A program made the translations under genes and the position numbers. Shown here piece by piece: positions 16,057 through 50,343 of a stretch of 64,000 nt of DNA. Under the pieces are notes generated by a model that worked only from the letters and a program-made list of their open reading frames with translations, was not told the DNA's origin and did no database searches. Each line of letters begins with the position of its first letter. Positions within the stretch are counted from its first letter, which is position 1. The stretch is from a virus, in the IMG/VR virus record IMGVR_UViG_3300045988_182880, positions 1 to 64,000 of that record; one strand, written 5' to 3'.

Positions 16057-16084
16057 TTGCGCCGCTGTGCGAACCTCATAAAAT
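16057..16084 (+). promoter_or_regulatory. Promoter with conserved GTGCGAA spacer box (box k): TTGCGC-16-TAAAAT
   Basis: The spacer cgCTGTGCGAAcctca is a member of the 11-copy motif family. Confidence 0.4.
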
Positions 16085-16223
16085 AGAAATTGTACAAGAG
16101 AAACGGCAAGAGACATTTGTAGTGATTGTAGTTGGTCGCCACGAATCGATGCCGTGTCTGCTTGCGCATAATTACCTCTTTTCGAAGCCCACAGGTCATT
16201 CTCTCACCTGTGGGTTTTGTTTA

Positions 16224-16252
16224 TTGCGGAATCGTGCGAATTGCAGACAATT
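16224..16252 (+). promoter_or_regulatory. Promoter with conserved box (a): TTGCGG-17-ACAATT, spacer aatcGTGCGAATTGCAg
   Basis: Motif family. It precedes the flotillin gene. Confidence 0.5.
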
Positions 16253-16344
16253 AAAGACAGAGCGATTGTGAGATGGGGCGATACCGATGCAGTAGGGATG
16301 AGAATCTTAGCAGCTAAAAAACTGAATGTGGAGAAATAAAAATT

Positions 16345-17988
16345 ATGGTATACGTGATTGGAATTGTAGCAGCCCTGATTATTCTCTTTGGATTTCTCTG
16401 CTACAAGAAAGCTCCGCCCACGGAGGCTATCGTTGTAACTGGCTTTGGCCTGTCTAAGCCTAAAGTGGTTTGCGGAAAGGGTACATTTGTTCTGCCCGTT
16501 CTTCAACGGGCTGACCGACTAAATATGCGCCTTTTGAAAATCGATGTCAAGACTCCTGAAACAGGTGTTAAGACGAAGAACGGCGTAAGTCTCTGGATTG
16601 ACTCTGTTGTCACGATTCAAGTCTACAGCGAAAACTCTACCGTTCTGGATGAAGAAGTGAAGGCATCCGGTCTGAAAGACGCCAAGGCGTACATCATGTC
16701 CCGCCAGCAGGCAGCCATCTCGAACTTTCTCGGCATGAACGAGCAGGGCATCAATGACAAAGTCAATGACGTTCTGCAGGGCAATTTGCGAGAGATTGTC
16801 TCCGATATGACCGTTGACCAAATTCTGACGAACCGCAAGCAGATGGCTGTGAGCGTTATCGAGAATGCTCGCCCCGACCTTGCTAAGATGGGACTTGAGG
16901 TCGTGACTTTTAATGTCCAGGACATCAGGGATGCAGTGGATGTTCAGGGCCACAACCACGGCGTTATCGAAGCTATCGGCATCGAACAGGAAGAGCTCGT
17001 AAAGAAACAGGCTGAAATTGCCCGTGCTCAGGCTGCCCGTGATGTAGCCTGCGCAAAGGCCGATGCTGAGATGGCTGCAAATGCCAAGGAAGTTGAAGCG
17101 CAGACTGCGATTGCAAAACGCAACAATGAATTGCAGCTCGCCAAGGCAAAGCTGAAAGCTGAAGCTGATAAAGCTGCGGCTGACGCAGATGCTGCCGGTC
17201 AGATTCAGATGAATCTCCGCGCCAAAGAAATCAAAGAAGCGGAAGCGGATGCTGAAATCGCCAAGCAGAAGAAAATGGTAGACCTTGCCGCACAGGAAGC
17301 CGAGGTCCAGCAACGCAAACTGGATGCGGAAGTCCGCAAACAGGCAGATGCTGACCTGTACCGCCGCCAGAAAGAGGCAGAAGCCAAGAAATATGAGGCG
17401 GAACGTGCAGCTGAGGCACAGAAGTTCTCCAAGCAGCAGGAAGCAGAAGGCATTGAACTTGTCGGTAAGGCAGAAGCTGAAGCGATTCGTCAGAAAGGCT
17501 TGGCTGAAGCGGAAGCCATGAAACAGAAAGCAGAGGCATATAAGCAGTATAACGATGCGGCTGTGGCTGAAATGCTCATCAAGGTTCTTCCTGACATTGC
17601 CAAGAGCGTGGCTCAGCCTTTGTCCAGCATTGATAAGGTTTCTATCATTGGCGGTGATGCCTCCGGCGTATCCGGCGTTTCCGGGAACGTTCCTATCCTG
17701 ATGGCTCAAACCATGCAGACGGTGAAAGAAGCGACCGGCATTGACATGGGCGAAATTGTCCGTGCCAACAGCATCCAGGCAAAGACCGACCGCAACATCA
17801 ACATTATGACTCAATGTGAACAGCCTGAGAATAACAAAGAGAAAGGAGGTGCCAAGGCAATGGAACGCGTAGAAGGCGGCTATCTGATTCATGAGAAGAG
17901 TCTCAACGGTGAGAAAGTCACTCATTTTCGACCGGATGTGACCGAAGAAGAGAAGGCTATCATGAAAGACAAAAAGGCCAAAGATTAA
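16345..17988 (+). CDS. Flotillin / SPFH (band-7) domain protein with long Ala/Glu/Lys coiled-coil
   Basis: An N-terminal TM segment is followed by an SPFH core (LPVLQRADRLNMRLLKIDV...VVTFNVQDIRD) and then an AEAKAE-rich coiled coil. Confidence 0.8.
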   Translation: MVYVIGIVAALIILFGFLCYKKAPPTEAIVVTGFGLSKPKVVCGKGTFVLPVLQRADRLNMRLLKIDVKTPETGVKTKNGVSLWIDSVVTIQVYSENSTVLDEEVKASGLKDAKAYIMSRQQAAISNFLGMNEQGINDKVNDVLQGNLREIVSDMTVDQILTNRKQMAVSVIENARPDLAKMGLEVVTFNVQDIRDAVDVQGHNHGVIEAIGIEQEELVKKQAEIARAQAARDVACAKADAEMAANAKEVEAQTAIAKRNNELQLAKAKLKAEADKAAADADAAGQIQMNLRAKEIKEAEADAEIAKQKKMVDLAAQEAEVQQRKLDAEVRKQADADLYRRQKEAEAKKYEAERAAEAQKFSKQQEAEGIELVGKAEAEAIRQKGLAEAEAMKQKAEAYKQYNDAAVAEMLIKVLPDIAKSVAQPLSSIDKVSIIGGDASGVSGVSGNVPILMAQTMQTVKEATGIDMGEIVRANSIQAKTDRNINIMTQCEQPENNKEKGGAKAMERVEGGYLIHEKSLNGEKVTHFRPDVTEEEKAIMKDKKAKD

Positions 17989-18110: not shown

Positions 18111-18138
18111 TTGCTGAATTGTGCGAATTGAAGATAAT
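18111..18138 (+). promoter_or_regulatory. Promoter with conserved box (b): TTGCTG-16-GATAAT, spacer aattGTGCGAATTGaa
   Basis: Motif family. Confidence 0.5.
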
Positions 18139-18150: not shown

Positions 18151-18996
18151 ATGCTTTGTATCAAATCGATTGAAACCGAAGAGGTGAAGTTAATGCTCGG
18201 CGTGAGTTTGATTATCATAGCAGCGGCTATAGTCTACATGGTCGAAACCTATATCAGCACCTATTACACTATCGAATACATGCACGGAACATCGCTGTTC
18301 CTTATCCTCTTTGCGAAATATGGCACGCCAGTCCTGTTCCTGCTGCTCTGCGCCTACATTGCATATCGCAATTTTCTCAAAAAGCAGAAAGCTGCGGCTT
18401 CTGCTGCATCTGAACGGCCTACAAGCAAAGAAGAGCTGTATACCAACAAAATTCAAACGGCAGTAAAGACAAAAAGCGTCTTCTCCGAGCAGGCTGACCA
18501 AATGCTGTATCAGGTACGGCGCTTCGGGCAAAAAATGGCCGTTGCCTACAGCATGACCCAGGATAGCAAGACATCCGGGGAACAAGCCAAGTGCCTAACG
18601 TTATTGGAATCCGCAGAACGTATCTTCTATGACCGACTGGATGACGCGATTCGCTCGGCTTCAATGTTTGATGAAACGGAATACAAGGCTTTCTGTCAAG
18701 GCTCTATCTCGTTTGGAAACAAAGAGGAAGCTCAGAAAAAGAAGGACATCTACAATGGTATCGTAAGTACCGTGGATAAGGTAGTTCATGACAATGAGCG
18801 CTTAATCCTCCGATTGGATTCTTTAGCATACGCTCTGAACCAACGTTCTGCCCAGAATCCGTGGGATACAGAGGTTGTGCTCGCAATGTCAAAGCTCGAT
18901 GCTGTCATTAACAAGACGACGCAGGATATTGAACAGGATGAAGATATCAGTCGTGAGGCTATGAAACGATATAACAACTTGAAAGGAGAAATTTAA
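18151..18996 (+). CDS. Membrane protein (2 TM + coiled-coil cytoplasmic domain), flotillin-associated
   Basis: The N-terminal half is hydrophobic. The start may be the internal Met at 18193. Confidence 0.45.
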   Translation: MLCIKSIETEEVKLMLGVSLIIIAAAIVYMVETYISTYYTIEYMHGTSLFLILFAKYGTPVLFLLLCAYIAYRNFLKKQKAAASAASERPTSKEELYTNKIQTAVKTKSVFSEQADQMLYQVRRFGQKMAVAYSMTQDSKTSGEQAKCLTLLESAERIFYDRLDDAIRSASMFDETEYKAFCQGSISFGNKEEAQKKKDIYNGIVSTVDKVVHDNERLILRLDSLAYALNQRSAQNPWDTEVVLAMSKLDAVINKTTQDIEQDEDISREAMKRYNNLKGEI

Positions 18997-18997
18997 C

Positions 18998-20692
18998 GTG
19001 ACAAAAAAGAACATTTTCCCTGTAGTTGCAACCATCGCCGTGGTGGGTGTTGTTCTCGGAGTATTTTCGATGACGGTGATGAGGGACTCAAACGTCAGCA
19101 TTAGTACAATGACGTCCGAGCAGGCATATGCCAACTTGAGCAGCAAGATGAAGCGCATCGGCGTGCAGGAGGTCAAGGTCAATCCTCAGCAGCTGGATGT
19201 CTCTGAATTCCTTGATGCAAAGGATGAACTGCCCGACATTGAATCCTCCTACCCATTCGTGGTCGTAGGAAACGGAGATGTGAACATCGAAATCTTTTCC
19301 TCTGGCGAGAAAGCAGCAGAGTCCGGCTCAGATTCTTTCCTGACCGAAATGGCAAAGAAGTTCAACGCCCAGCACAACAAGACTTCCGGAGACAAGACTA
19401 TGAGTGTCTCCCTGCGCTCCATTCCGTCCGGTACGGCGGCTGAGTACATCTCGACGGGAAAGTATCAGCCCGAGTGCTATACCCCCTCAAATACGCTCTT
19501 TGGCGAGCTGGTGAAGAACGAGGGCGTAGAATTGACCGTTGAGGCTGACCGTCTGGTCGGCAATGTGGCGGGTATTCTCGTATCAAAGAAGACAGGGGAT
19601 ATGCTTCGCTCTGAATACGGTGAAGCGTCTGTTTCTTCCGTTCTGAACGCAACCATCGATGGCAAACTCATGATGGGGTATTCCAACCCATATACCAGCG
19701 CAACTGGTCTTAACTTCCTGCTTGCTGCATTGGCAAGCAGCGGCAGCGATACGATTGTCGATACGGCTGCTGTTGAGAATTTCCAGAAATTTCAAGCGAA
19801 CGTCCCTCTCGTATCCTTCACGACCCAGCAGATGGTCCAGTCGGCTGACAAGGGTATCGTGGACGGTGTCGTGATGGAGTACCAGTCTTATCAGAATGAC
19901 CCAACCTTGCAGCGCAACTACGAATTCATCCCGTTCGGTGTACGGCACGATAATCCTCTGTATTCCATCGGGAATGTCTCTGCGGAGAAGAAGGAAGTTA
20001 TTGCTGCCTTCGTTTCCTTCTGCGCTCAGAACCAGGCAGAGGCGACGAAGGACGGGTTCAATGGTCTCGATGACTATGCTTATACAGGCAAGGCATACGA
20101 CGGCAACACCATCGCACAGGCTCAGAGTGTCTGGAAAGAAGAGAAGGATTCCGGCATTCCTATTGTGGCAGAGTTCGTTGTTGATACTTCCGGCTCAATG
20201 CGCGGCGAACCCCTGAATGCCCTGAAAACCGCGATGATAAACACCATCCAGTATATCAATGACGACAACTATATCGGCATCATTGGCTTTGATTCAGATG
20301 TCAGGGAATACCTGCCCATTGACCAGTTCTCTCTGACTCAGAAAACTCTGTATAAGGGTGCCGTGAACTCCCTCGATGCGAACGGCAGCACCGCAATGTA
20401 CAACGGTCTTTGCGTTGCTATGGACCGCATCTACCAGAAATCTCAGGAACTGGGTGGGAATTGCACGCCCATCATCTTTGTGCTCACGGATGGTGACAAC
20501 AATACCGGATATGGCTTCTCCGATACGAAAAACATCATTGCCGGTATGGATATCCCCATCTATACCATCAGCTACAACTACGCGGCAGACAGCCTCTCGG
20601 AACTCGCGTCAATCAACGAGGCGGCTGCTATCGTTGGTAACAGCGAGGATATCACCTACAAGCTCCGCAACTTGTTCAACGCGGAGATGTAA
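18998..20692 (+). CDS. von Willebrand factor type A (vWA) domain protein with N-terminal TM/signal
   Basis: GTG start after an AAAGGAG RBS. The C-terminal half carries the MIDAS motif VVDTSGSM. The ...LTDGDNN segment is a vWA hallmark. Confidence 0.7.
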   Translation: MTKKNIFPVVATIAVVGVVLGVFSMTVMRDSNVSISTMTSEQAYANLSSKMKRIGVQEVKVNPQQLDVSEFLDAKDELPDIESSYPFVVVGNGDVNIEIFSSGEKAAESGSDSFLTEMAKKFNAQHNKTSGDKTMSVSLRSIPSGTAAEYISTGKYQPECYTPSNTLFGELVKNEGVELTVEADRLVGNVAGILVSKKTGDMLRSEYGEASVSSVLNATIDGKLMMGYSNPYTSATGLNFLLAALASSGSDTIVDTAAVENFQKFQANVPLVSFTTQQMVQSADKGIVDGVVMEYQSYQNDPTLQRNYEFIPFGVRHDNPLYSIGNVSAEKKEVIAAFVSFCAQNQAEATKDGFNGLDDYAYTGKAYDGNTIAQAQSVWKEEKDSGIPIVAEFVVDTSGSMRGEPLNALKTAMINTIQYINDDNYIGIIGFDSDVREYLPIDQFSLTQKTLYKGAVNSLDANGSTAMYNGLCVAMDRIYQKSQELGGNCTPIIFVLTDGDNNTGYGFSDTKNIIAGMDIPIYTISYNYAADSLSELASINEAAAIVGNSEDITYKLRNLFNAEM

Positions 20693-21024: not shown

Positions 21025-21052
21025 TTGCACAGCCGTGCAAATTGCATACAAT
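21025..21052 (+). promoter_or_regulatory. Promoter with box variant (i): TTGCAC-16-TACAAT, spacer agcCGTGCaAATTGCA
   Basis: Motif family. Confidence 0.45.
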
Positions 21053-21393: not shown

Positions 21394-23549
21394 ATGGCAA
21401 GAAGGAAAACAAACGACTTGGAAAATCAGATGTCGCTCATGGACATGATTGCATCGGAAAGCCCCGAATATACCGAAGAAGGCCCGGAAGAACTCTTGGA
21501 CCCCGGCGAGGACATGGGGGACAGTGAAGGGCAGACGGATAAGCCCTTCAAACTCGTGGCGAACAAGACCACGAAGGCAAAGGTGAGCATCTCCACGCAG
21601 GCGCTGAATGTTGTGAAGGCGGTATATGCTGATACGGTCGAAACGAATTGGGAAGAGTTGTTTGACGGGTTCGACAGACTCTATGCTATCACTTTTTCGT
21701 CCGGTATCGAGTTCGTGAATAAGGTCATCAACAAGTTCTCGTATGCGGAAGTCGTGTTCGGCTGCGAGAAAATCATCGCCAACGACATCGCTGCCATCAT
21801 GTCGGTGCAAATCGACAGCGTGCAGCGGCTCGCTAAGTCTAAGTCGGCAGGGAACCTTGCGAACCGCCTCGATGACGGGTCCTTGCAGCTGTATGTATCG
21901 CGGGACACGAAATCGCACGAGAAAATCTTTATCTTGGAGAGCGCTGACCATAAGCGTGTCCGAGTCATCACCGGCAGTGCGAATATGTCGGCATCGGCGT
22001 TTTGCGGCATTCAGCGAGAGAATATCGTCTGCTTCGATGACGAGGCGGCATTTTCGCATTACAAGGTTCTGTTCGAGACCTTCAAGGAGACCTGCTCCGA
22101 CAATGTCTCCTATAAGGCAGTCGTGAACACCATGAACCAGGAAGATTATCTGAAAGAGAACATCAAAGAAGTGCCCGTCTTTCAGTCTATTGAAAAGCAG
22201 AAGCTTGTCTTTCTGGAACAGGCACAGCCTGAGGATGAGGTCGAATACGAGATAGTTGCCGATGTCAAGAAAATGCAGGAACTCGTCAAGCCAATCATGC
22301 CTAAGATGCCGGTACAGGCGAATCGTATTGTAGTGGCAGCGGAACCGATGCGCGTTTTCGGGAAACGATATACCGAGGTGCGGCGTGTGGCAGCTGAGGC
22401 AGTTAAGCAGCTCCCGAAATTACATATCGACTATGATGCCGGGACCATGACCTTCAACGACGAGAATATCGACCTCAATCCGAATCTCAGCGAGGTGGCA
22501 AAGAACATCGAGAGCATCCAGAAGTTCTTCTCAGGCATGGACTACTTTTACGGCGATGTCGAACAGGCCAAGAAGGACTACTTCAAGTACATGACCTGGT
22601 ATCTGGCTACCCCGTTCATGGCGTACCTTCGGTATTTTGCGTCAAGGAACAACTACGATACGAAGCTGTTCCCGATGTACGGCGTAATTTACGGTGACTC
22701 AAACGGCGGCAAGACGACCTTTATAAAATTTCTTGTCAAACTCATGTGCGGTGAGACCGTTAAGATGAACACGACGGAGGATTTCACAGCCACAAGAATC
22801 GACGGCCTCAAACGAGTTTGTGAGGGGCTGCCGCTGAACATCGACGACCTCGCCAAGACCCAGTTTCAGAACGGGTAATCAAGAACGATGAATGGGGTAT
22901 CTCGGACAGGCTCGTGAACTATCCTGCTGTATCTATCACATCGAATAAAATTACCTCGCTGACAAAAGACCTCTCGAAACGTGCTATCATCTGTCGAATT
23001 GGTGCTAAAATCGACAACGAGCGCGGTGCCAAGAACTCGAAGCGTGTGAATGAGAGTATGTCGGAGCTGACAACCGCGTTCTATGGCGAATATGTCCGCC
23101 GAATGCTTGTTTGCATCGATGAGATGACGACGGAAATGCGTGAAAATGCGAATGGCAAGGAATACTTCCCGGATATCTTCCACGCTTCGTCTAGTGTCAT
23201 TGCAGATATCTTCGAGGCATGCGGAATCGATTTGCCGGACTATGTGCGTATCCTGTACTATAACGACTATATGGGTGATGAGAGCATTGGTCGTGCTGCA
23301 ATTGAGAAAATCGAACTGGCATGGCAGGCTGACCCGAGCAAGTTCCGGGTTGATAAGAAGCAGAACAGGCTCATTTACTCCTATCCGCCGGATGGACCGT
23401 GGTACGAACTGAAATACATTGCAGATGAGCTGCCGAACTCCCTCGAAGCAGAGATTTCTGGCGGCAACCAGCTTATCATGAACTACGAGCAGGCACAGGA
23501 ATTGTTCGGCATCAAGTTTCGGCGCTGGCTGGGCATCTTTAACCTCTAA
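21394..23549 (+). pseudogene. P4/VirE-type primase-helicase-like P-loop protein, interrupted by an apparent frameshift near 22870 (ORFs 21394-22878 and 22914-23549)
   Basis: Walker A GDSNGGKTT is present. The downstream ORF's frame stays open upstream across the stop of the first ORF and overlaps it, which indicates a single disrupted gene. Confidence 0.5.
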
Positions 23550-23600: not shown

Positions 23601-23629
23601 TTGCCCATTTGTGCGAATTGCAGACAATC
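23601..23629 (+). promoter_or_regulatory. Promoter with conserved box (c): TTGCCC-17-ACAATC, spacer atttGTGCGAATTGCAg
   Basis: Motif family. Confidence 0.5.
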
Positions 23630-23711: not shown

Positions 23712-23984
23712 ATGAAAGACTACGGCAACGGCTATTCCATTGAGGAGCTTGCCGCAAAATACAGGTTGAGCGTCCGTACATGCTATCGAGCGTTAGACGA
23801 CGCGAAACAGAAGGCCAGAATTCAGTTGGCGCAGGTAGAGGATGCCAGAAAAGCTGAAATCCTTGCGGCATACAAGAACAGTGTCCCTCTCAAGGAAATG
23901 ATTGCGAAATTCAACGTGGCAGGTCAACAACCCCGCCTAAACCGGTTCGCCGGTTATAGACGGGGCTTGCGGGGCAACCCGTAA
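23712..23984 (+). CDS. Small protein with two HTH modules (GYSIEELAAKYRLSVRTCYRAL type)
   Basis: The HTH module resembles those of the 50455-52449 poly-HTH genes. The 3' end may be over-extended into the downstream structured RNA. Confidence 0.45.
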   Translation: MKDYGNGYSIEELAAKYRLSVRTCYRALDDAKQKARIQLAQVEDARKAEILAAYKNSVPLKEMIAKFNVAGQQPRLNRFAGYRRGLRGNP

Positions 23985-26494: not shown

Positions 26495-26523
26495 TTGCGG
26501 AACTGTGCGAATTGCAGACAATT
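26495..26523 (+). promoter_or_regulatory. Promoter with conserved box (d): TTGCGG-17-ACAATT, spacer aaCTGTGCGAATTGCAg
   Basis: Motif family. Confidence 0.5.
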
Positions 26524-26566: not shown

Positions 26567-27142
26567 ATGAGCTACGAACCTATTATAACACCGGGCAGGA
26601 ATTTTTTTCTTGTTTCAACGGAATATAAAGAGAGCTGCTCTGCCTGGTGCCGCAAGCAAATTGGCACGACACTGAGAACCTGTCAGGGACGAATTATCAT
26701 CATCGATGCGACGGGCGAGTATGCGAACCTGGCGCTTGACCATGACAGACTAATTCGAGAGAAGATTCCGTCCATCATTTACCGGTATAAGTTGGTGGAC
26801 GGGAAACCGTATCTTGCTCACGTCATTGAGGTCGATACGGAAGCAAATGAAGCGCCGCGCCTGATTGTATACGATATCAGCCGAACCTTAATCACCAGCT
26901 GGAAAGTCGGCGTGGAAGCCATCAATAAAATCCTGCAATCTTATGCCGTGATGCAGGACAATGAAATCGCATGGCTGTATGTTCCGTTGGACCTATATAC
27001 CAATGTCAAGCCCGAAAGCGAATCCTGGAACATCCTGGAACGAACCATCAAGGGCAATGAAGGAAAGCTCATGACGGTGCTAACAACACGAAAATTCAAT
27101 ATCGGTACAGTTCAGCGTTGTTTACATATGAATAAAGAATAA
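26567..27142 (+). CDS. Hypothetical protein
   Basis: ORF downstream of promoter box d. Confidence 0.4.
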   Translation: MSYEPIITPGRNFFLVSTEYKESCSAWCRKQIGTTLRTCQGRIIIIDATGEYANLALDHDRLIREKIPSIIYRYKLVDGKPYLAHVIEVDTEANEAPRLIVYDISRTLITSWKVGVEAINKILQSYAVMQDNEIAWLYVPLDLYTNVKPESESWNILERTIKGNEGKLMTVLTTRKFNIGTVQRCLHMNKE

Positions 27143-27158
27143 TATTGGAGGATATTAC

Positions 27159-28046
27159 ATGACAAACGAACAGTTGAGAATCGCATTGACGGCGAATGCC
27201 GTTACCAAACAGACCCGTAACCATTTTGGGTTCAGTGACCCGTGTGGGAAGACTCTGGAAGAGTACAACAAATCTTCAATGCTTTGCTGTGTGACGGCAG
27301 CGCAGAAAATGAACACGCCGGGTTTCGAGCGTGTCCTTGCTGCACAGATTTTCCCCTGCTTCACCATCGGCTGCTGGAACCAGACGAAGACGGTCTATGA
27401 TTTTGACTACGAGTTCCAGAAAATTCTTATGGATACGGATGACATGGCAATTCATCAGGATATCCTGCAGCGGCTTCCGATTCGTGATTTCTTTATCCCG
27501 GTGTATGACAGCTACGACTACAACGGTATGTTCGTGCATGTGGAATTCGAAGAGAAAGAGAAGACCACTGCTTTCGGCATCGTTCTTGTCGGCCCGGCCA
27601 AAGGCAGCCATGATGATTTCACGTTCCTGACTCTGCCTGCCTGGGCCAAAGAAAACCAGAGCTTGACGGAAGCAACTCGGAGCACGAAAGAATACCTGGA
27701 AAAGGCGGCCGGGCAGCGGCAGGTAAATGGTATCAGCGTTCCGGCTGTGATGGAAGCAGTTCCTTCGGTCTTTGACGGCGGCACGCCTTATGTTCGCCTG
27801 GCAATCCTGTGTGCCTACTATCTTGCCAGTAAGAGCCCTGATGTCCGCTTGGAAACTTCCAAAAAGCGTGACCGCCCGGTATTCGTGTTCCAAGGGAAAG
27901 CACAACGCATCAACGTCAAGGCATATACCGTTGGTGAGAATGCGGCCAAAGAATACAAGAAGAACGGGGAAGGCAAAACTCCTCGCTGGCGGCATTACTG
28001 GTGCGGCAATGGCCGGGAACGTCGGGAATGCAAATTCATCTATTGA
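27159..28046 (+). CDS. Hypothetical protein
   Basis: GGAGG RBS. Long ORF. Confidence 0.45.
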   Translation: MTNEQLRIALTANAVTKQTRNHFGFSDPCGKTLEEYNKSSMLCCVTAAQKMNTPGFERVLAAQIFPCFTIGCWNQTKTVYDFDYEFQKILMDTDDMAIHQDILQRLPIRDFFIPVYDSYDYNGMFVHVEFEEKEKTTAFGIVLVGPAKGSHDDFTFLTLPAWAKENQSLTEATRSTKEYLEKAAGQRQVNGISVPAVMEAVPSVFDGGTPYVRLAILCAYYLASKSPDVRLETSKKRDRPVFVFQGKAQRINVKAYTVGENAAKEYKKNGEGKTPRWRHYWCGNGRERRECKFIY

Positions 28047-28064
28047 TGGGATGAGGTAAATATC

Positions 28065-28910: not shown

Positions 28911-28938
28911 CTTGCAAAAACGTGCGATACGCATACAA
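28911..28938 (+). promoter_or_regulatory. Promoter with box variant (j): TTGCAA-16-TACAAT, spacer aaaCGTGCGAtacGCA
   Basis: Motif family. Confidence 0.45.
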
Positions 28939-28978
28939 TAAATAAAAATCCAAGATAGAACGAATAGGAGATATAAAC

Positions 28979-29645: not shown

Positions 29646-29673
29646 TTGTCAATCTGTGCGAATTGCGTACAAT
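29646..29673 (+). promoter_or_regulatory. Promoter with conserved box (e): TTGTCA-16-TACAAT, spacer atCTGTGCGAATTGCg
   Basis: Motif family. Confidence 0.5.
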
Positions 29674-37018: not shown

Positions 37019-37104
37019 AACCCTAATAAGATAAAAATTGTGCCCTGACGGCATCTGAACTGGATGCTGCCGGGGTATTTTTTGTTGTTGAGGAGATTAG
37101 AGTT

Positions 37105-39825
37105 ATGACACTGAACGACTTGTCAAGCGAACAGCAGGAATTCGTACATTTGGCATTGTCGGGCAAAAACGTATTGTGTGACGCCTGCATCGGCAGCGGA
37201 AAAACATCGACTATCAACGTACTCTGCGATGCATATCCACCAGAACGGCGTATTTTGTACTTGACCTACAACCGATTACTCAAACTTGATGCCAAAGACA
37301 AAATCAAGAATGGCAATGTCCTGGTTCAGAACTATCATGGATTTGCAAGCCTGCTGCTGAACAAAAAGGGAATCCGGAATTGCGGACAGGGCGAACAGCT
37401 TGCTATGGTGCTGGAAAAGAAGGTTCCGATTCCGCCGATTGATACCCTTATCATCGACGAATACCAGGATATCAATGACGAGATTGCGGAACTGCTCAAA
37501 TATATTCGTTCTCAGAATCCGGGCCTTCAAATCGTCGCAGTGGGCGATATGAAGCAGAAAATCTACGATGATACAGCGCTGGATGTCTGGGAGTTCATGC
37601 AGGATTTTCTCGGCCGCCATGAACAGGTGGTTTTCACGAAATGCTTCCGTATTTCTCATGACTTGGCAGAACGACTCGGCAATATCTGGGGCAAGACCAT
37701 CAACGGCGTAAATGGTTCCTGCATCGTGGAACAGATGTCGGTCGATGAGGTAACAGAGTTCCTGGATAAACAGAACCCGAAAGATGTTTTGTGTCTGGGC
37801 GCTCGAATCGGAGCCATGACAAAGGTGCTCAATGACCTGGAAAATCGGCCCGGAAACCTCTATGACAAGCATCACGTCTATGCAAGTATCGCGGACAATG
37901 ACGGGGATAAGGCGGTAGCACCTTCCTCAGATGTTGGTATCTTCACAACATTTGACGGCAGTAAAGGTATGGAGCGACCTATCTGTGTCGTGTTCGATTT
38001 CACTGAGGAATACTGGTCGTCCCGCACAAGCAAGCCAATGTCACGATATGAGATTCTTCGGAATCTGTTTTGTGTCGCAGCAAGCCGAGGAAAGCAGCGG
38101 ATTATCTTCGTGAACTATGACCATCCGTTGAGCGATAAATCCCTGATGACTCCGACTGGAATGAATTGCGTGTTCCGGCATCCGTTTTCGTTCTCCGAGA
38201 TGTTCGACCACAAATTCATCGAAGATGTGGATGCTTGCTATAAGCTGCTGGAAGTCACACCGATTGAGCACAACGACAATACGACCATCGATGTGCAGGC
38301 AGCGGATGCCATGATTGATTTATCCCCCTGTATCAGCATCTATATGCAAGCAGGGTTCTTCAACTACTACGACATTGATGACGCACTTGCATATTATATG
38401 GACCTGCATGATGATATGCAGTATTTGAAAATCAAGAAAGGCGCAACGGTCGAGGATAAGGTTCTGCTGCTCACGGCGCTTGAAACGAATCAGTGCCGGT
38501 ATGTAAAACAGGTCAAGCCTCCTTTTGTGAACGCAAAAGCCAAAATGTCGCTGAGTATGCGGCTTGGCACCGTGTTCACTCCTGATGAGTATGTTCAGGC
38601 ACGCGGAGATATCGACATCCATACTAATGACCATAAAGTGATTTATACTTCGGGCCTTGCGGATGTCGTAAAGAACAACACCGTCTACTGCATCAAGTTC
38701 ATCAGCAGTCTGGCACACAAGCATTTTCTGCAGTGTGCGTGTTCTATGATTGCGCTGGGTCTTCCATATGGCGTTGTCTGGAACGTGAAAAGTAACCTGA
38801 TGTACAGCGTAAAAATCAAGGATAAGGACGCTCTGATTGACGCAATCCTCAAGTGCATCACGAAACGAGCTTACAACGGCGCGGATTATTACACCTGCCG
38901 AAAAGGCTTTGTACAGGATACGGCATCGATTATCGACCGCTGGACTGACGACGGATATGCGGAAGAACCCACCGCCATCACTTCCGGCGACGGTATCGCC
39001 ATCATCAAGCAGGGAACTCGCTATTTTGTGATGGACGGGGCACGCCGAAACACTCTGAACGATAATTTTGGGCTTGGTTTTGCCGATGTGAAAGACGCTT
39101 GTCTTGCTTATGCGAAGAGTTGCGAACTTCAAAAGACTGTGGACCATGATTCTCCTTATTCCGAAGTCGAGTTCTGGCTCGACCAGAACAAGGCGTTTGA
39201 GGAATACATGACACAGGTGAGTCACGAAATCACACAGCACAAAGAAGGACCGTATGCAAAGTACAAGTCTTTCGCTACACCCGTTATCCGAAAAATGCTG
39301 GCCGAAAAAGGACTTGCCATCACATTCCCGGAAAAGGTCCTCATCAAGGTTTGGAAGATGCGCCGCGCCGAAGATGCCATGTATCAGAAAATCGAAGAAG
39401 CAAATAAGCAGAACAATTCCAATGTGCCGCTCGATGAGGCGTTCTTTGACTCTGAACTGGTGGATTCCGTTGAGGGAAATACCAAAAGTGCCAAGGCAAA
39501 AGCCAAACCCCAAAAGGAATCCGCATTGCCGTTTTCCAAGTACGGTGCAGATGAAAAGAAGAGTTACCGTGTTGTGAAGAGTCCTGAACTTTCAAAGCCC
39601 AATCAGCCGCGCTATGTTGTGGTCGAGACGGCTACCGATAAGGTCCTGGACAACGCCAACGGATACGGATACCTATCCTATCAGGCTGCCTGGAAAGGGT
39701 ATTCGTACAAGAGCAAGCATCATCTGGATGGGGCAAAGAAGCCTATGAGCAAGAGCGCAAAAGAACGGGCTAAGAAAAAGGCAGCTTTCTTCTCGACCGA
39801 TTCGGAACAGCTCAGTTTCGGCTGA
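37105..39825 (+). CDS. UvrD/Rep-like SF1 helicase with 450-aa C-terminal extension
   Basis: Motifs: I GSGKTST, II IIDEYQD, III VGDMKQKIY and V TFDGSKGMERP. The ASRGKQRII segment resembles motif VI. The extreme C-terminus has a basic tail. Confidence 0.75.
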   Translation: MTLNDLSSEQQEFVHLALSGKNVLCDACIGSGKTSTINVLCDAYPPERRILYLTYNRLLKLDAKDKIKNGNVLVQNYHGFASLLLNKKGIRNCGQGEQLAMVLEKKVPIPPIDTLIIDEYQDINDEIAELLKYIRSQNPGLQIVAVGDMKQKIYDDTALDVWEFMQDFLGRHEQVVFTKCFRISHDLAERLGNIWGKTINGVNGSCIVEQMSVDEVTEFLDKQNPKDVLCLGARIGAMTKVLNDLENRPGNLYDKHHVYASIADNDGDKAVAPSSDVGIFTTFDGSKGMERPICVVFDFTEEYWSSRTSKPMSRYEILRNLFCVAASRGKQRIIFVNYDHPLSDKSLMTPTGMNCVFRHPFSFSEMFDHKFIEDVDACYKLLEVTPIEHNDNTTIDVQAADAMIDLSPCISIYMQAGFFNYYDIDDALAYYMDLHDDMQYLKIKKGATVEDKVLLLTALETNQCRYVKQVKPPFVNAKAKMSLSMRLGTVFTPDEYVQARGDIDIHTNDHKVIYTSGLADVVKNNTVYCIKFISSLAHKHFLQCACSMIALGLPYGVVWNVKSNLMYSVKIKDKDALIDAILKCITKRAYNGADYYTCRKGFVQDTASIIDRWTDDGYAEEPTAITSGDGIAIIKQGTRYFVMDGARRNTLNDNFGLGFADVKDACLAYAKSCELQKTVDHDSPYSEVEFWLDQNKAFEEYMTQVSHEITQHKEGPYAKYKSFATPVIRKMLAEKGLAITFPEKVLIKVWKMRRAEDAMYQKIEEANKQNNSNVPLDEAFFDSELVDSVEGNTKSAKAKAKPQKESALPFSKYGADEKKSYRVVKSPELSKPNQPRYVVVETATDKVLDNANGYGYLSYQAAWKGYSYKSKHHLDGAKKPMSKSAKERAKKKAAFFSTDSEQLSFG

Positions 39826-40134
39826 TTATTACTGCCGATGAGAGGGGGTGTATCAAGCGCAGCTTCAGGACGTTGCGCATTGTTTTCCAACACAAATAAA
39901 ATCACAAATCGGAAAATCCTTCTGAATATCACATAACAAATATCAGACATATGCCCACATAGGCAGAAAGGAATTACAACCCCTGCGCCGGGAAAGCCCA
40001 CTCCGTGAGGGGTGGGATGAAAGGCGCGTTGGAAATTTCAAGAAATTCATAAGGTGTTAACCGATTTTGTAGCAATTTGTGGTATAATATGCTATATGAT
40101 TAGAGATTATAGACGAACTGCAACAACTGTGTCT

Positions 40135-40500
40135 ATGGTGAATTATCATTTTGTGTTTTGCCCGCGCTATCGAAGAAAAATATTCTTAATAGATGGTGTA
40201 GAAGCGCGATTCAAAGAACTTGTACACCAAATTTGCGAGCAAAACGATTTTGATATATTAGCTATGGAATGCTACATTGACCATTGCCACTTGTTTTTGA
40301 ATGTTCCTCCAACAGTAAGTCCCTCTGATGTCATGCGTATCATTAAAACGAATACATCAAGGGTGCTGCTCAAGGAATTTTCTGAAGCAATTAAAACAAA
40401 AACCATTTGGACACGCAGTTATTTTGTCAGTACCGCCGGTGATGTATCTGCTGCTATGATACGCCGCTATATAGAAACCCAAAAGACTCGAGGTGTGTAA
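40135..40500 (+). CDS. tnpA: IS200/IS605 TnpA (Y1 HUH transposase)
   Basis: MVNYHFVFCPRYRRKIF, HUH motif DHCHLFL, and catalytic Tyr region RSYFVSTAG. An extended -10 TGGTATAAT lies upstream. Confidence 0.8.
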   Translation: MVNYHFVFCPRYRRKIFLIDGVEARFKELVHQICEQNDFDILAMECYIDHCHLFLNVPPTVSPSDVMRIIKTNTSRVLLKEFSEAIKTKTIWTRSYFVSTAGDVSAAMIRRYIETQKTRGV

Positions 40501-42043
40501 TTTGCCATACGGTCAAAAATCAAAAATGGATACCTTTATCCTGACGTTGCCGCTTATTACGAATTCGCACGATGAGGCGGAACTGTATTCCAGCTTTGAA
40601 AAATATTGCAAAGCATATAATTGGCTCGTTCAAAAAACCACGGAGATGTGGCATCAGGTGCGCAAAACTCGCAAATATCGCGATTTGGTTTCTGCTATTG
40701 CTGATACGGCTCCAAAAAGCAAAGAACGAAAAGCATTGTATAAGGAACGTACAAAGCTGCTCGAATCGTACGGTTTCACAAGCGTATCGTTCGAGAAGAA
40801 GCTTAAAGCGTATGCGAAATACTACCATCTGCATTCAGCCATCACGCAAAAGATTGCCGCTCGTGTCTGGGATTCGTGGTACAAGTTCTTCTATAAGAAC
40901 GGAAAATCCGTCCATTATAAAAAGCTAGACGATTTCGTTAGTTTTGCGGGCAAAACCAACAATACAGGCATTCAGTTCCTCGACAATAATGGTTTGTATA
41001 TTAAATTCCGTGGACGCTGCATTCCGGTTAAGCTGCGCAAAGGCAATACCGCATGGTATCAGCAGGAAGCGCTCAAACGGAAAGTTAAGTTCTGCACCAT
41101 CAAGCGCGAAATGATTCGGGGACAATGGCGCTACTTTGTACAGCTCGCCTTGGAAGGCAATCCCCCCATCAAATGCGACAGTAACGGCGTTATGAAGCAT
41201 CCTGTTAAGCAAGGCCGCATTGGTATAGATATCGGAACACAAACCATCGCGTTTAGCGGTAATGATGTTTGCGACCTCCGTGTGCTTGCACCGTCTGCTA
41301 TAGCAGAAGTCCGCAATGGTCTCACTAAGGAAATCGCTCGCGTTATGCGGCAAATGGACCGTTCGCGCCGGGCGATGAATCCGCAGTATTATAACGAAAA
41401 CGGAACCATCAAACGGCTAAAGCGCAAGAATGGACATAAGCAAATTCGTCATTGGAACTATAGCAAAAACTATTATCGGCTGCTGCATAAATTGCAGGAT
41501 TTGAACCGTAAGCTTGCTGCCGTACGCAAGACGGAACACTATATTCTTGCCAACGAGTTGCTGACATACGGCAACGAATTCGTGGTTGAAGATATGAACT
41601 ACAAAGCCTTGCAGAAGCGCAGTAAGAAAACGAAAATCAACCCCAAAACTGGTAGAGCGTATACCAAAAAGCGATTCGGTAAATCTATCGGTCGCTGTGC
41701 CCCGGCTTTGTTTATCGCCATTTTAGGACAAAAAGTAAAGTGCAGTGGCGGCAACATTATCAAGGTCAGCACTTTTGAAACGAAAGCCTCGCAGTTTGAC
41801 CACACCGATGACAGCTATACCAAAAAGAAATTGTCCCAGCGTTTTGCTAAACTCTCCAACGGAACCGTTGTCCAGCGGGATATGTATTCCGCATTTCTTT
41901 TAACGCATTTAGATGAAAGCCTTCAAGGCTACGATAAAGAAGCCATCGATAAAGATTTTCAACAGTTTATGAAACTGCACAACGAGGCAAAAGAACGCTT
42001 GCAAAACAGCCACGAGTGGCTGCCTTCTAGCGTAGGATTCTGA
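40493..42043 (+). CDS. tnpB: TnpB-like RNA-guided nuclease (IS605 OrfB), overlapping tnpA end
   Basis: RuvC-I is GIDIGTQTIAF, RuvC-II is VVEDMNYK and RuvC-III is QRDMYSAFLL. Confidence 0.8.
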   Translation: MCNLPYGQKSKMDTFILTLPLITNSHDEAELYSSFEKYCKAYNWLVQKTTEMWHQVRKTRKYRDLVSAIADTAPKSKERKALYKERTKLLESYGFTSVSFEKKLKAYAKYYHLHSAITQKIAARVWDSWYKFFYKNGKSVHYKKLDDFVSFAGKTNNTGIQFLDNNGLYIKFRGRCIPVKLRKGNTAWYQQEALKRKVKFCTIKREMIRGQWRYFVQLALEGNPPIKCDSNGVMKHPVKQGRIGIDIGTQTIAFSGNDVCDLRVLAPSAIAEVRNGLTKEIARVMRQMDRSRRAMNPQYYNENGTIKRLKRKNGHKQIRHWNYSKNYYRLLHKLQDLNRKLAAVRKTEHYILANELLTYGNEFVVEDMNYKALQKRSKKTKINPKTGRAYTKKRFGKSIGRCAPALFIAILGQKVKCSGGNIIKVSTFETKASQFDHTDDSYTKKKLSQRFAKLSNGTVVQRDMYSAFLLTHLDESLQGYDKEAIDKDFQQFMKLHNEAKERLQNSHEWLPSSVGF

Positions 42044-43710: not shown

Positions 43711-43852
43711 GCACTTGCTATATTATTCGAATCCAGTACAATAAATAGTGTGAACGGATACTAAACAATCAGTAAGATTCACAATCTGTATTTTAAGCGG
43801 ACTTATCCCATAGCGGGGTAGGTCCGCTTTTTTTGTTGAAAGGAGAAAAAAC

Positions 43853-45002
43853 ATGAAAATCAAAAACAATCTATTTCGGAGCACAGCGGCAATCATCGCT
43901 GCGCTCTTTGCACTCAGCTTCACCGGCTGCGGTCAGAGTCCGATAATATCGGAAAGTCCATCCAGTATTGGGGTCGTCTCAGAAAGCACTGCAAGCAGTG
44001 AGCAGACGGCTGGCGATTCGGTGGACGGCAGCTTTACGATTCACTTTTTAGACGTAGGACAGGCGGATTCCGCTCTTGTTACCTGCGACGGCCACTCAAT
44101 GCTGATTGATGGCGGCAATGTGGATGATTCTAACCTCTTATTCTCTGTTATGCAACGAGAAACCGATGGGCACCTGGATTATGTCGTTGGGACTCACGCG
44201 CACGAAGACCACATCGGCGGCTTGTGAAGCCGTTACTGCGGACATGACTCTATGCCCTGTGACAGAATACGACAGCAAAGCATTTCGGAACTTTGCAAGC
44301 CACGCGGAACAGAAAAGCGGCGGCATTACGATACCGGATGTGGGGGATACCTATACTTTGGGAGAAGCGGAATTCACGATAGTTGGTGTTAATTCTGTTT
44401 CCGATGATACGAACAATGCATCGATTGTTCTGCGCATCGTTTATGGGGATACTTCGTTCCTCTTTACTGGTGATGCTGAACAGGAAGCCGAAAATGTGAT
44501 ACTTGCATCGGGACAAGACATTCAGTCAACGGTTCTGAAAGTGGGTCATCACGGCTCAAGCACATCTACCTCAGAGGCTTTTCTGGACGCAGTGAATCCG
44601 ACCTATGCCGTAATATCTTGTGGAGCAGGGAACAGCTATGGCCACCCACATCAGGAAACACTCGACAAGCTGCAAAACAAGGGTGTTGTGGTTTATCGTA
44701 CAGACCTGCTGGGTGATATTTACTGCACCTCGGATGGCAAAGAGGTAAGTTTCACTTCCGGCGAATATCATGATGAGAATCGGATTGAAGCGGGTTCTGC
44801 TGCAGAGTCCAATGATGAACAAAACAGCAAACCTCTTGTAATAGACGAAACATACGTTCTGAATACAAGTACCATGAAGTTTCACAAACCCGATTGCTCT
44901 GTAGTCGAATCGATGAGCCAGAAGAACCGAATCAACTATATGGGCTCACGTGACGAGCTCATCCAGGAAGGGTATTCGGCGTGCGGGATTTGTAAGCCTT
45001 AA
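43853..45002 (+). pseudogene. ComEC/Rec2-type metallo-beta-lactamase-fold lipoprotein, apparent -1 frameshift after HAHEDHIGGL (about 44225)
   Basis: The signal peptide carries a lipobox (ALSFTGC). Motifs HFLDVGQADS...LIDGG and HAHEDHIGG are present. Then a stop occurs, and the continuation VLKVGHHGSSTS...NSYGHP is in another frame. Confidence 0.6.
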
Positions 45003-45020: not shown

Positions 45021-45048
45021 TCGACAAGCTGTGCGAACTGACTACAAT
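45021..45048 (+). promoter_or_regulatory. Promoter with conserved box (g): TCGACA-16-TACAAT, spacer agCTGTGCGAAcTGac
   Basis: Motif family. Confidence 0.45.
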
Positions 45049-45192
45049 AAAAAATGTACGATAGATAACAAACATCGAAAAAGGCATTCTGCCTTTCGTA
45101 CAATTCACAATTCTGCAGACATAAGGCAGACTCACCGTCTTGGTGGGCCTGCCTTTTTTGTTTGCGCAACTATAAAAAAGGAGTATAACGCA

Positions 45193-49049: not shown

Positions 49050-49085
49050 TTACAAACAACAAATAACATTTTGGAGGGTAAAATT

Positions 49086-50165
49086 ATGGCCACTATTAAC
49101 GACGTAAAATATCTGACAGAAGAAGGAATTTATGAATTTCTTCACAACCCGAACGAAAATTATCTTGAGGGGTTCGCGGTAGATAAGGAACCCGCTTTCT
49201 ATTGCCCTAGCAACTGCGAAGATGGAACGTATCTAAGGCTCTTCAAGGCCCCGGTTAACAGTAGGATGACAGAGTTGCTTATGCAGAATTTTAGATGGAG
49301 CGCACGAGAAGGCTGTTACAACACGCCGCTCCCTGAAGACTGCACAATCAGCTTTAAGCGTGCCGGATTTATTGCCGATTCATCCAAGTTCTGGATTCTG
49401 TCGGATTATCTTCTTAAAGTTTGCCCTAAATTGAAACCTGAATTAACAGATTTCCGTCAGCAGTTTGAACGGGCATTCTGCAAGAAAATTCTCGACGATT
49501 TCAGTATGAGCCGTGACCTAATCAATAGCAAAAAAGCAGAAGGACGTGCAGAGCAGTATGCCATCTATGCTATGCTCAAGAAGAAACCGGTTTATCATGA
49601 ATATGTAATTGACGATGCAATGAGTATTGTTCGCAGTTTTGGCTTTAGAAGCATGGCAAACTATATCCTTGACGCGAATGATTATCTTGAAAGTGCATTA
49701 GCCAACCTCAAAGATAGAGTAATAAGAAGCTTTGTTTTTCAAGGAGTATGGTACAGCAGACGAGCATGTGAATTTCCTAAAAAAGTTGAAGCTGCAAGAC
49801 TGGCTGATAAAATTGCACATACGTTCATTGCTGCCGATAATGACTCTCAACGTATTGCAAAAAGTGTATGTGCATATTGCTCACGGGAACTTAATGATAG
49901 AAAAAACGTGACCATCACGATTGGAACCAGCGATGATAACGGTATTCCCGTTAAAGTTTCTTGCGATACCCTGCTTCATTATGAGCCAACCTCCAAAGAG
50001 ATTTTTATCAATGTCAAATCCGCAAACAAGAATGAGCGTGAAAAAATCAATCAGTACGTAAAAGATAACGGCGCTTTTGTAAGCGAAGACCTTGTTCCAA
50101 TGAACCTTTTACAGTCTGTTATCTCCTACGGTTGGGAACATTGGAATCGAGACTTTCCTGAATAA
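49086..50165 (+). CDS. Hypothetical protein
   Basis: GGAGGG RBS. Long ORF. Confidence 0.4.
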   Translation: MATINDVKYLTEEGIYEFLHNPNENYLEGFAVDKEPAFYCPSNCEDGTYLRLFKAPVNSRMTELLMQNFRWSAREGCYNTPLPEDCTISFKRAGFIADSSKFWILSDYLLKVCPKLKPELTDFRQQFERAFCKKILDDFSMSRDLINSKKAEGRAEQYAIYAMLKKKPVYHEYVIDDAMSIVRSFGFRSMANYILDANDYLESALANLKDRVIRSFVFQGVWYSRRACEFPKKVEAARLADKIAHTFIAADNDSQRIAKSVCAYCSRELNDRKNVTITIGTSDDNGIPVKVSCDTLLHYEPTSKEIFINVKSANKNEREKINQYVKDNGAFVSEDLVPMNLLQSVISYGWEHWNRDFPE

Positions 50166-50315
50166 TAATCCTAGATATTTGTATCATTCATACAAGGCCG
50201 GAAAACTACTGGATTGATTTTCAAAAGCAATGGCAATCAAGACCACTGCCCCGAAAAGGGTAGTGGTCTTATTTTTTTGCACAATATTTACCATAAATTA
50301 CCAGAAAGAAAAACG

Positions 50316-50343
50316 TTGTGCATCTGTGCGAATTGCATATAAT
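50316..50343 (+). promoter_or_regulatory. Promoter with conserved box (h): TTGTGC-16-TATAAT, spacer atCTGTGCGAATTGCa
   Basis: Motif family. It precedes the poly-HTH genes. Confidence 0.5.

Follow-up and report, generated by a model that had tools for sequence, protein, structure and literature searches.

A recurrent 28-bp promoter type with a conserved spacer box on a gut replicon that fits the Hodor-type conjugative megaplasmids

The window analysed here is a stretch of 64,000 nucleotides, positions 1 to 64,000 of the IMG/VR virus record IMGVR_UViG_3300045988_182880. Its genes lie nearly all on the + strand and a 28-bp promoter type recurs upstream of them, in which a conserved box fills the spacer between the -35 and -10 elements. 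A first-pass annotation of the sequence had listed eleven such boxes between 16 and 50 kb. All of them are present, the one given as 28911 beginning at 28912. They are not confined to this range of ~34 kb, as had been supposed, since further sites were found at 199-226, 8386-8413 and 62964-62992 as well as at 43715-42, which lies within the range and had not been listed. The window holds 14-15 box sites in total, namely, the eleven listed, 199, 8386 and 43715 plus the shifted variant at 62964. Two classes were distinguished: class I is a box with a short leader, and class II is a box followed by a -10-like (T/A)ACGAT, a structured leader and an intrinsic terminator. The sites are as follows (aa, amino acids; HTH, helix-turn-helix; ORF, open reading frame; RBS, ribosome-binding site).

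199-226, + strand: box promoter (TCGACATTTGGTGCGAATCGCATATAAT), upstream of metallophosphatase and HipA-like genes.
8386-8413, + strand: weaker box promoter (TTGCCGTAATGTGCGATTTGACAATAAT), upstream of the TnpB-like gene 8463-9923.
16057-16084, + strand: box promoter that would drive a ~140-nt structured RNA (16085-16222) with a terminator at 16186-16222; -10-like TACAAG at 16093.
16224-16251, + strand: class I box promoter, upstream of the SPFH/flotillin gene 16345-17988.
18111-18138, + strand: class I box promoter, upstream of a 281-aa gene and a VWA gene (18151-20692).
21025-21052, + strand: class I box promoter, upstream of the PLD-like gene 21394-22878.
23601-23628, + strand: class I box promoter, upstream of the 90-aa HTH gene 23712-23984, a paralogue of 50455.
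26495-26522, + strand: class I box promoter with the best consensus match, upstream of three uncharacterised genes (26567-28772).
28912-28939, + strand: box promoter, upstream of the 202-aa gene 28979-29587.
29646-29673, + strand: class I box promoter, followed by leader terminator 29707-29739, a 65-aa membrane ORF (29762-29959) and a second terminator (29974-30005).
36991-37018, + strand: box promoter with a -10-like TAAGAT at 37027 and leader terminator 37043-37083, upstream of the UvrD-like helicase gene 37105-39825.
43715-43742, + strand: degenerate class II box promoter with the core ATTCGAA and terminator 43795-43834, upstream of a metallo-beta-lactamase-fold gene.
45021-45048, + strand: class II box promoter (TCGACAAGCTGTGCGAACTGACTACAAT); the RBS and a gene from 45193 follow after the leader.
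50316-50343, + strand: class I box promoter with a terminator-like leader hairpin at 50408-50443, upstream of the tandem-HTH operon (50455-52449) and an AAA ATPase gene.
62964-62992, + strand: variant box promoter with a 17-nt spacer (TTGTGA-N17-TATAAT, core TGCGAATCGCG), upstream of the gene 63025-63714.

The sites share the consensus TTG(C/A)-N6-(G)TGCGAA-(TTGCA)-kAyAAT. The spacer measures 16 nt at all sites except the 62964 variant, and its conserved element spans -25 to -13 in a fixed position. A conservation profile was compiled with one site per gene family (n=74). TTG at -34..-32 is invariant, followed by C (47/74) or A (20/74) at -31 and by A-28 in 55/74. T or C at -25 and G-24 precede TGCGA at -23..-19, which is invariant in 74/74 sites. 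Conservation then continues with A-18 (63/74), T-17, T-16, G-15 (65/74), C-14 (54/74) and A-13 (51/74) into a -10 of the form kAyAAT with invariant A-11 and T-7. Positions -30, -29, -27 and -26 are near-random, so that the conservation reflects selection and not recent copying. When only TTG, TGCGA, A-11 and T-7 were required, 117 sites were obtained, and the positions left free in this looser set were A-18 in 103/117, G-15 in 100/117, C-14 in 87/117, A-13 in 73/117 and C-31 in 83/117.

The box is an imperfect, lopsided dyad (TGCGA-a-TtGCA), and a few sites are perfect palindromes. Its right half averages ~3.1 matches out of 5 compared to 1.25 by chance, both being estimates from the 117-site counts, while the left half is far more conserved. 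Box 199 is such a perfect palindrome (TGCGAATCGCA), with the dyad TGCGA-A-TCGCA. At 21025 the core is mutated to GTGCAAA, whereas the orthologues read GTGCGAA. With a TTGACA-related -35, a TATAAT-related -10 and 16-nt spacing, the sites have the make-up of sigma-70/sigma-A promoters; in class II, a fully canonical TTGACn at -35 is frequent. The promoter format given previously holds as regards its sigma-70-like elements and non-random spacer; it needs correction in that the spacer is 16 and not 16/17 nt and that the -10 starts with G in five of the eleven listed sites (GACAAT or GATAAT).

The core 7-mer GTGCGAA by itself is not enriched in the window (13 observed, 11.5 expected). The 15-mer consensus with up to three mismatches is enriched, with 10 occurrences versus 2.75 expected, and none of 100 shuffles reached 10. 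A 34-nt weight matrix was derived from the box sites and used to rescan the window, which yielded 12 sites at 32-46 bits as well as 8386 (20 bits) and 43715 (16.5 bits). All of them are intergenic and on the + strand. No other position of the window exceeded 10 bits, and shuffled sequence yielded no sites. In the degenerate CRISPR region, a box-like relic at 36832-36865 (TTTTGCTATGGTGCGAAAATGCAG) is without a -10, and it departs from the box by indels, as does the GTGCGAA at 36842.

It had been stated that every + strand operon start between 16 and 50 kb is preceded by a box. This is nearly so, but no box was found before 24290, 25820, 40054, 42418, 46736 and 47616. Canonical TTGACn-17-TGnTATAAT promoters without a box are present in the window at 55391, 59700 and 60761, where they precede tRNA clusters and an XRE-type gene. 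Because such box-free consensus TGn promoters occur on the same replicon, the box promoters were regarded as a separate class. The Cascade-NADAR operon and the downstream helicase had been included in the box-controlled set. Boxes 29646 and 36991, respectively, do stand ahead of them, but two terminators intervene in the former case and one in the latter. Only past both terminators of box 29646 do a helicase gene, a 197-aa gene, NADAR and Cas5/Cas8c/Cas7 follow (30015-36694). The ORF between these two terminators, which part the box from the helicase and Cascade genes, encodes a predicted membrane peptide of 65 aa (29762-29959).

The motif was followed beyond the window. Its exact 18-mer was found in more than 120 stretches of IMG/VR on contigs of up to 389 kb, and many of these stretches match parts of the window, mosaic-like, with 85-97% identity. 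The weight matrix gave 292 sites in 1.0 Mb of relatives and none in shuffled sequence, at a density on the element of ~1 per 3-4 kb; sites on both strands were seen in only one of 119 relative loci. An ORF with a Shine-Dalgarno sequence stands behind 291 of 310 sites at a median distance of 92 nt. These ORFs belong to at least 57 unrelated gene families with unrelated flanks, among them topoisomerase IA, DNA methyltransferases, sortase, YopX, TnpB and GIY-YIG in the relatives. The commonest family is that of the tandem-HTH proteins (48/291 sites), which includes 50455 and 23712. Sequence conservation, geometry, strand and distribution of the boxes are thus direct observations, as is the terminator structure described below. 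The view that the motif delimits a 34-kb element was not borne out, as it occurs at 199 and 8386, past the end of the window (locus L193) and across replicons of ~200-390 kb. What lies past the 3' end in that locus (L193 10934-14042) are AcrVA2-like genes and a Phage_lysozyme2 gene, and weaker box variants precede the L193 genes (12570, 15240 and 19358).

A generic feature of bacterial chromosomes had been named as the finding that would speak against a dedicated regulon. In 596 Gb of bacterial genomes, the exact 18-mer occurred at chance level only, with 72 scattered matches against ~140 expected by our own estimate. The exception is DYBQ01000001.1, a single-contig 'metagenome-assembled genome' of 223.8 kb with several full sites. 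The 18-mer also recurs in Nostoc-type genomes (L124, L130, L132, L138, L156, L186 and other cyanobacterial loci) in the fixed context TTGGGTG(G/A)T(G/A/T)GTGCGAATTGCAGA(T/C)AAT; this is probably a conserved sequence without relation to the plasmid. When the literature was searched in full text for the motif, all papers retrieved dealt with unrelated subjects.

The region is composed, mosaic-like, of cassettes that have a terminator and a box as their borders. Homology with relatives breaks off exactly in boxes at 23600/23621 (11 loci), 45003/45030 (5 loci), 29679 and 36986; at box 23601, homology with several relatives ends within the box. Among 115 breakpoint clusters, ~17 are no more than 100 nt away from a box, where ~6 would be expected, and most are at other gene borders.

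Part of the box promoters is followed by a second conserved layer, consisting of leader terminators, a conserved leader and a -10-like element, which the first-pass annotation had missed. Class II comprises 18 of 57 gene families and 20 of 88 non-redundant sites, the other 68 sites being class I. The hexamer (T/A)ACGAT begins at the ninth nt after the -10 in 14/20 class II sites (TACGAT in 12, AACGAT in 2), which would place it at approx. +1 to +8. Class I sites have no fixed -10-like element; no position accounts for more than 21% of the 68 sites. The leader is ~100 nt long and opens with the 5' sequence UGUACGAUAGAUAnCA, followed by a variable hairpin, the linker AUUCACAAUU and the intrinsic terminator. 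In RNA letters, the order is UUGUACGAUAGAUAnCA, a hairpin, UCGUACAAUUCACAAUUyyGC and a GC-rich hairpin with a U-run, directly after which the RBS is found. Two copies lie in the window.

45054-45159, + strand: class II leader with the -10-like TACGAT at 45057-45062, P1 stem (UGUACGA/UCGUACA), P2 hairpin, linker AUUCACAAUU and terminator at 45123-45159.
43734-43833, + strand: degenerate class II leader (covariance model R1, 41 bits).

The leader alignment was fitted to a covariance model. The proposed structure was 89.8% paired, compared to 38-49% in controls with slid partners. The terminator helix is 96.5% paired with compensatory changes in 12 of 13 pairs, and covariation is seen at each of the four P2 pairs. 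P1, which some variants have lost, is mostly invariant; leaders without the P1 partner strand retain AACGAT or AACAAT. The model recovered 57 copies in 875 kb of relatives, four of them in tandem cassettes at one locus (L080 1-5000), and in the window it matched 45054-45158 (98 bits) and 43734-43833 (41 bits). No Rfam family was matched at the gathering threshold; the sub-threshold matches were terminator-like, for example NrrF with 28.5 versus 60 bits. The class II leader is therefore a conserved structured leader outside Rfam, with covariation supporting its terminator and P2 stems. Terminator-like hairpins between promoter and gene were found more widely, in 24/57 families. Six leader terminators lie in the window at 16186, 29707 (with a second at 29974), 37043, 43795, 45123 and 50408.

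Two of the neighbouring features are of note in their own right. The ~140-nt RNA at 16085-16222, which would start from box 16057, folds strongly (-49 kcal/mol) and its terminator abuts the next box promoter at 16224. It is kept in the relative loci L010, L047 and L052 and, instead of being a leader, may act as a small RNA. The metallo-beta-lactamase-fold gene behind box 43715 spans two overlapping frames (43853-44227 and 44106-45002), which indicates a frameshift or a pseudogene.

The nature of the replicon was assessed from its gene content and its relatives. Gene runs in one direction extend over more than 50 kb with terminators between genes. The window encodes a HipA-like kinase, methyltransferases and helicases, TnpB/IS200 elements, SPFH, VWA, PLD nuclease and RRXRR-HNH proteins, a helicase-NADAR-Cas5/Cas8c/Cas7 block, a UvrD-like helicase, a radical-SAM protein, three tandem-HTH proteins and an AAA ATPase, as well as 17 tRNAs and a hepatitis delta virus (HDV)-like ribozyme. 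A nucleotide search of phage and plasmid records gave no match to the window, and the nearest 'Bacteriophage sp.' contigs at the protein level (L199-L201) are unrelated and do not contain the motif. Gut contigs in ENA that share a window protein reach 234,791 bp, and other relatives in IMG/VR and ENA measure 389,222 and 253,664 bp.

These features were compared with those of the Hodor conjugative megaplasmids, which were described in a bioRxiv preprint of 2026 as human gut replicons of 211-389 kb that are misclassified as huge phages (PMC12934698). Their group G1 has a GC content of 47.1%. They encode a type I-C system whose array is degraded, sortases, ParM and giant secreted proteins, and TnpB and Phage_lysozyme2 domains are frequent among their genes. 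Hodor-related reads were reported from over 9,000 metagenomes of human gut or wastewater (PMC12934698). The GC content of the window is 47.12% and the contigs at hand are likewise of human-gut origin, 185-389 kb in size and filed as viruses. Cas5/Cas8c/Cas7 with repeat remnants and TnpB are found in the window, lysozyme2 and sortase in relatives, and a protein of at least 2956 aa, an actin/ParM-like protein and TraX in the window or its relatives. By these features, the replicon fits a Hodor-type conjugative megaplasmid of ~200-390 kb from human gut Bacillota. This applies to the whole window and replaces the earlier view of a phage or of an integrative and conjugative element in a chromosome; a co-regulated promoter set on a mobile element, as it had also been proposed, is supported. 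A jumbo phage was at first suggested by the 17 tRNAs, the HDV-like ribozyme and the IMG/VR matches. It was dropped because there were no structural genes among the annotated ORFs, which instead include sortase, a ParM-like protein, TraX and giant surface proteins, and because the Hodor description fits. The words promoter and tRNA occur zero times in the main text of the preprint, which does not deal with regulation either (PMC12934698). Promoters with an embedded shared regulatory site are already known as a kind on mobile elements, but are undescribed for Hodor-type gut megaplasmids.

If the boxes are read by a protein of the plasmid itself, several HTH proteins of the window are candidates.

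50455-52449, + strand: three tandem-HTH proteins with 3, 3 and ~6 HTH units, candidate regulators.
60992-61273, + strand: small XRE/RstR-like HTH protein behind the canonical promoter 60761, candidate regulator.
23712-23984 and 61823-62194: further HTH proteins, candidate regulators.

In the 50455-52449 proteins and the short paralogue at 23712, an HTH unit of ~45 aa is repeated. Their family matches comprise Mor, HTH_23/28, the CD3324 family and Cbp1, a tandem-HTH protein that binds CRISPR repeats. The 175-aa HTH protein was modelled as three HTH units on a string (pLDDT, predicted local distance difference test, of 80). In a fold search with this model, the Cbp1-like 2lvs was nearest, with paired domains and the DNA-binding domains of transposases next in rank; each of these matches was weak (E ≥0.06). 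Homologues were found only in this plasmid group, with at least 75% identity and in hundreds of metagenome copies. Fold and family searches of the HTH candidates thus ended at a tandem-HTH (Cbp1-like) architecture with no functional assignment. Judging from its place behind so many boxes, the family possibly regulates itself. It is a speculation that tandem-HTH proteins, which could read long asymmetric sites, would suit the three blocks TTGC, TGTGCGAA and TTGCA.

From the sequence, we infer a transcription start at the boxes, binding of a protein to them, and the sign of regulation and identity of the regulator as follows. The single most likely reading, which we hold tentatively, is still the one given by the first-pass annotation, a repressor with its operator inside the promoter. 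The boxes would be replicon-wide sigma-A promoters with an embedded operator for a plasmid-encoded global repressor, joined by a separate read-through control at ~40% of them. The spacer element at -25..-13 would be the docking site of a plasmid-encoded DNA-binding protein which, when bound, would exclude sigma regions 2 and 3. As the element fills the spacer and touches the -10, a bound protein would most likely block initiation. Dozens of cargo, defence and maintenance cassettes would then be silent in an established host and would fire jointly when the repressor is absent or inactivated, e.g. right after conjugative entry. After initiation, the class II genes and others with a leader terminator would in addition need read-through of the terminator.

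Repression is favoured because the geometry of the boxes is that of the repeated operators of large mobile elements: one short element recurs across many promoters, in overlap with their core. Among documented cases from Firmicutes, the Bacillus phage SPbeta comes closest. Its 15-bp element SPBRE lies in ~10 early promoters or transcription units and is bound by the repressor MrpR (YopR); in silico work had proposed SPBRE to be an operator many years ahead of the discovery of MrpR (PMC10516654). The likeness lies in a short element repeated in the promoter regions of one large Firmicute mobile element. The box differs from SPBRE in its sequence, in dozens of sites per replicon, in its fixed spacer position, in that part of the set carries leader terminators, and in belonging to a plasmid and not to a prophage; no MrpR-like protein with a tyrosine-recombinase fold was identified here. 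Element-encoded repressors that act on one operator in many dispersed promoters of a large extrachromosomal replicon are also known from P1 (C1) and from RK2 of IncP (KorA/KorB). The P1 operator is asymmetric and the KorA operators overlap the -10. Both systems are Gram-negative with unrelated sequences and proteins, and neither pairs its operator with a conserved leader and terminator.

Several observations weigh against a classic repressor. The left half of the dyad is invariant in 74/74 sites, whereas the right half is kept in 51-65/74, and such a lopsided dyad suits a monomer or an asymmetric binder better than a dimeric repressor. The conserved non-consensus bases (TTGC, GACAAT, the 16-nt spacer, no TG extension) could point to activation rather than repression. 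The HTH candidates resemble Cbp1 and paired-domain arrays and not known plasmid or phage repressors. The pairing of the box with a -10-like element and a terminator in class II is left unexplained by repression, and there is a small chance that a host factor is involved, since only the full 18-mer was searched in bacterial genomes.

The class II layout is what an antitermination of the Q/AlpA type would account for, the main alternative, though a less probable one. Here, the box would be the DNA site of a plasmid-encoded factor and polymerase would start constitutively; sigma-A would rebind the -10-like (T/A)ACGAT and cause a pause, at which the factor would be loaded, so that polymerase ignores the leader terminator and later ones. 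Only short RNAs of ~100 nt would be made without the factor. AlpA has a 6-bp binding element (ABE) between -35 and -10, CACGAT at -1..+5 and the terminator tB, and Q-lambda combines its binding element (QBE) with a sigma-dependent pause element and a terminator, its monomer binding an asymmetric site (PMC9388147, PMC9371919). The Q proteins of lambda, 21 and 82 and AlpA thus share with class II a factor element in the spacer, a -10-like hexamer at the start of the transcript and a terminator before the genes. All three cis parts are found in class II, i.e. the 6-bp spacer element, the hexamer at a fixed place in 14/20 sites and the terminator just before the RBS, in the same layout as in the AlpA cassette. 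It also agrees with this idea that leader variants without P1 still keep AACGAT or AACAAT, that the box is asymmetric like the monomer-bound Q-lambda site and that genes run co-directionally for more than 50 kb with intervening terminators. However, 68/88 promoters (class I) have the box without a fixed -10-like element, most of them without a leader terminator, and a chance match to TACGAT is expected at ~15% by our own rough estimate. The class II leaders all belong to one sequence family, so that their TACGAT amounts to no more than one independent case in evolution. Bases past the hexamer (AGATAnCA, AUUCACAAUU) are invariant as well, which argues for recognition at the RNA level or of another kind. 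No Q/AlpA-like protein was recognised by Pfam, NCBIfam or the fold search of the HTH candidates, with many neighbouring proteins remaining unannotated. The known Q/AlpA cassettes occur at a single promoter per phage or locus in Proteobacteria, whereas there are ~20 class II promoters here, most box promoters are without a pause element and the class II leader has extra conserved RNA features. The more specific proposal, in which box, (T/A)ACGAT and leader terminator form a DNA-loaded Q/AlpA-like antitermination at many promoters, with a loader unrelated to Q/AlpA and possibly of the tandem-HTH type and the leader as a new cis-regulatory RNA, is somewhat unlikely in our judgement.

The remaining explanations were considered less probable than either repression or antitermination. 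In one of them, which we deem unlikely, no dedicated trans factor exists and the box is a portable promoter module, with or without its terminator, that is copied with cargo cassettes or recombines between them, being kept as a good host promoter and a handy recombination site. The PeSL (promoter early stem-loop) modules of T4-type phages are of this kind: within a hyperplastic region, a conserved early promoter and a stem-loop border ORFs that vary, and cassettes may be shuffled by way of them. The cassette mosaic with its breakpoints exactly in boxes, or near them in ~17 of 115 clusters versus ~6, is in line with it. Most breakpoints, however, are at other gene borders. The present modules differ from PeSL in that the enrichment of breakpoints at boxes is modest and that the box is operator-like. 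Promoter strength alone would not be expected to yield invariant G/C-rich, dyad-symmetric spacer bases, and the replicon uses consensus TGn-TATAAT where plain promoters are apparently wanted. A role as portable module and one as regulator site are not exclusive. Positive control was given just as low a probability. A plasmid activator, a sigma-associated factor or an alternative sigma would read TTGC / TGCGAA / ACAAT as one site, the candidates being the tandem-HTH proteins with one HTH per block. The conserved non-consensus bases (C-31 in 83/117, G or T at -12, C at -10), the rigid 16-nt spacing with three conserved blocks approx. one helical turn apart and the weak similarities of the HTH proteins to sigma-70 region 4 and Mor argue for it, and the modelled tandem-HTH protein resembles Cbp1 and paired domains, which read extended asymmetric sites. 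On the other hand, known activators rarely bind -24..-13 of a promoter with a 16-nt spacer, the -35 of class II is frequently a fully canonical TTGACn, and neither a sigma region-2 domain nor an RNA polymerase gene was found in the ~50,000 residues scanned from ORFs of the relatives, which are a sample of the replicon. Lastly, the box might be the site of a host transcription factor by which plasmid genes are plugged into a host regulon. We consider this quite improbable, although the genome search with the full 18-mer including the -10, and not with the dyad alone, would miss a regulon using only the 11-13-bp dyad. The density of ~1 site per 3-4 kb on the element is extreme for a host regulon, and the box is unlike the Firmicute operators of LexA (CGAAC-N4-GTTCG), Spo0A (TGTCGAA), CcpA (cre), Rex, Fur and CodY. 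The nearest is the Spo0A site, which is one inserted base apart from the box. Known sigma and operator types (sigma-H/E/K/D/ECF, SPO1 and T4 promoters, LexA, Spo0A, CcpA, Rex and CRP) were also compared by eye, and none fits.

Further features of the window were recorded alongside the boxes. The 30015-36990 region encodes the helicase, the 197-aa protein, the NADAR protein and then Cas5, Cas8c and Cas7 without a Cas3 nuclease or Cas1/Cas2. Repeat remnants are found downstream of Cas7 (GATTGAAAAC at 36733, GATTGAAAC at 36820 and GTCGCG...GGGTGAAC at 36908-36948), the spacer-like stretches of which have no match within the window. A CRISPR-guided self-repression by the nuclease-less Cascade was considered and rejected, as the remnants at 36695-36990 contain no spacer-like match to any box. 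Three IS200/IS605-type insertions were detected at 8463-9923, 14586-15695 (- strand) and 40054-42043, comprising two TnpB genes and one TnpA with a TnpB-like gene. A weak box promoter precedes one of the TnpB genes, and in relatives, too, there are TnpB genes downstream of boxes. At 11277-11475, 4-5 iteron-like repeats (GAAAACTTTTCTGGAAT-like) adjoin two uncharacterised minus-strand genes, and 7783-7812 contains ACTTGCTA(C/A)G in three direct copies at 11-nt spacing. Both sets could serve replication or partition as binding sites, or be bound by a regulator.

The 17 tRNA genes are located at 55684-61834 in clusters behind the TGn-TATAAT promoters 55391, 59700 and 60761, with one odd tRNA call that has a two-base 'anticodon' (57111-57186). 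The HDV-like ribozyme at 55599-55679 (Rfam RF02682, 48.4 bits) ends 4 nt upstream of tRNA-Thr (55684). 'Theta' ribozymes adjoining tRNAs have been described for gut phages (PMC10879173). As the one found here is on a plasmid that pipelines call viral, some of the reported phage theta ribozymes may be Hodor DNA.

The 28-bp promoter type offers a handle to predict transcription units and, with the box as bait, to find the master regulator, as well as to recognise Hodor DNA misfiled as phage. It also lets one ask if defence, anti-defence and surface genes fire jointly when a new host is entered. Should the class II cassettes act in the manner of Q/AlpA, this mechanism would extend to Bacillota plasmids and to many promoters on one replicon.

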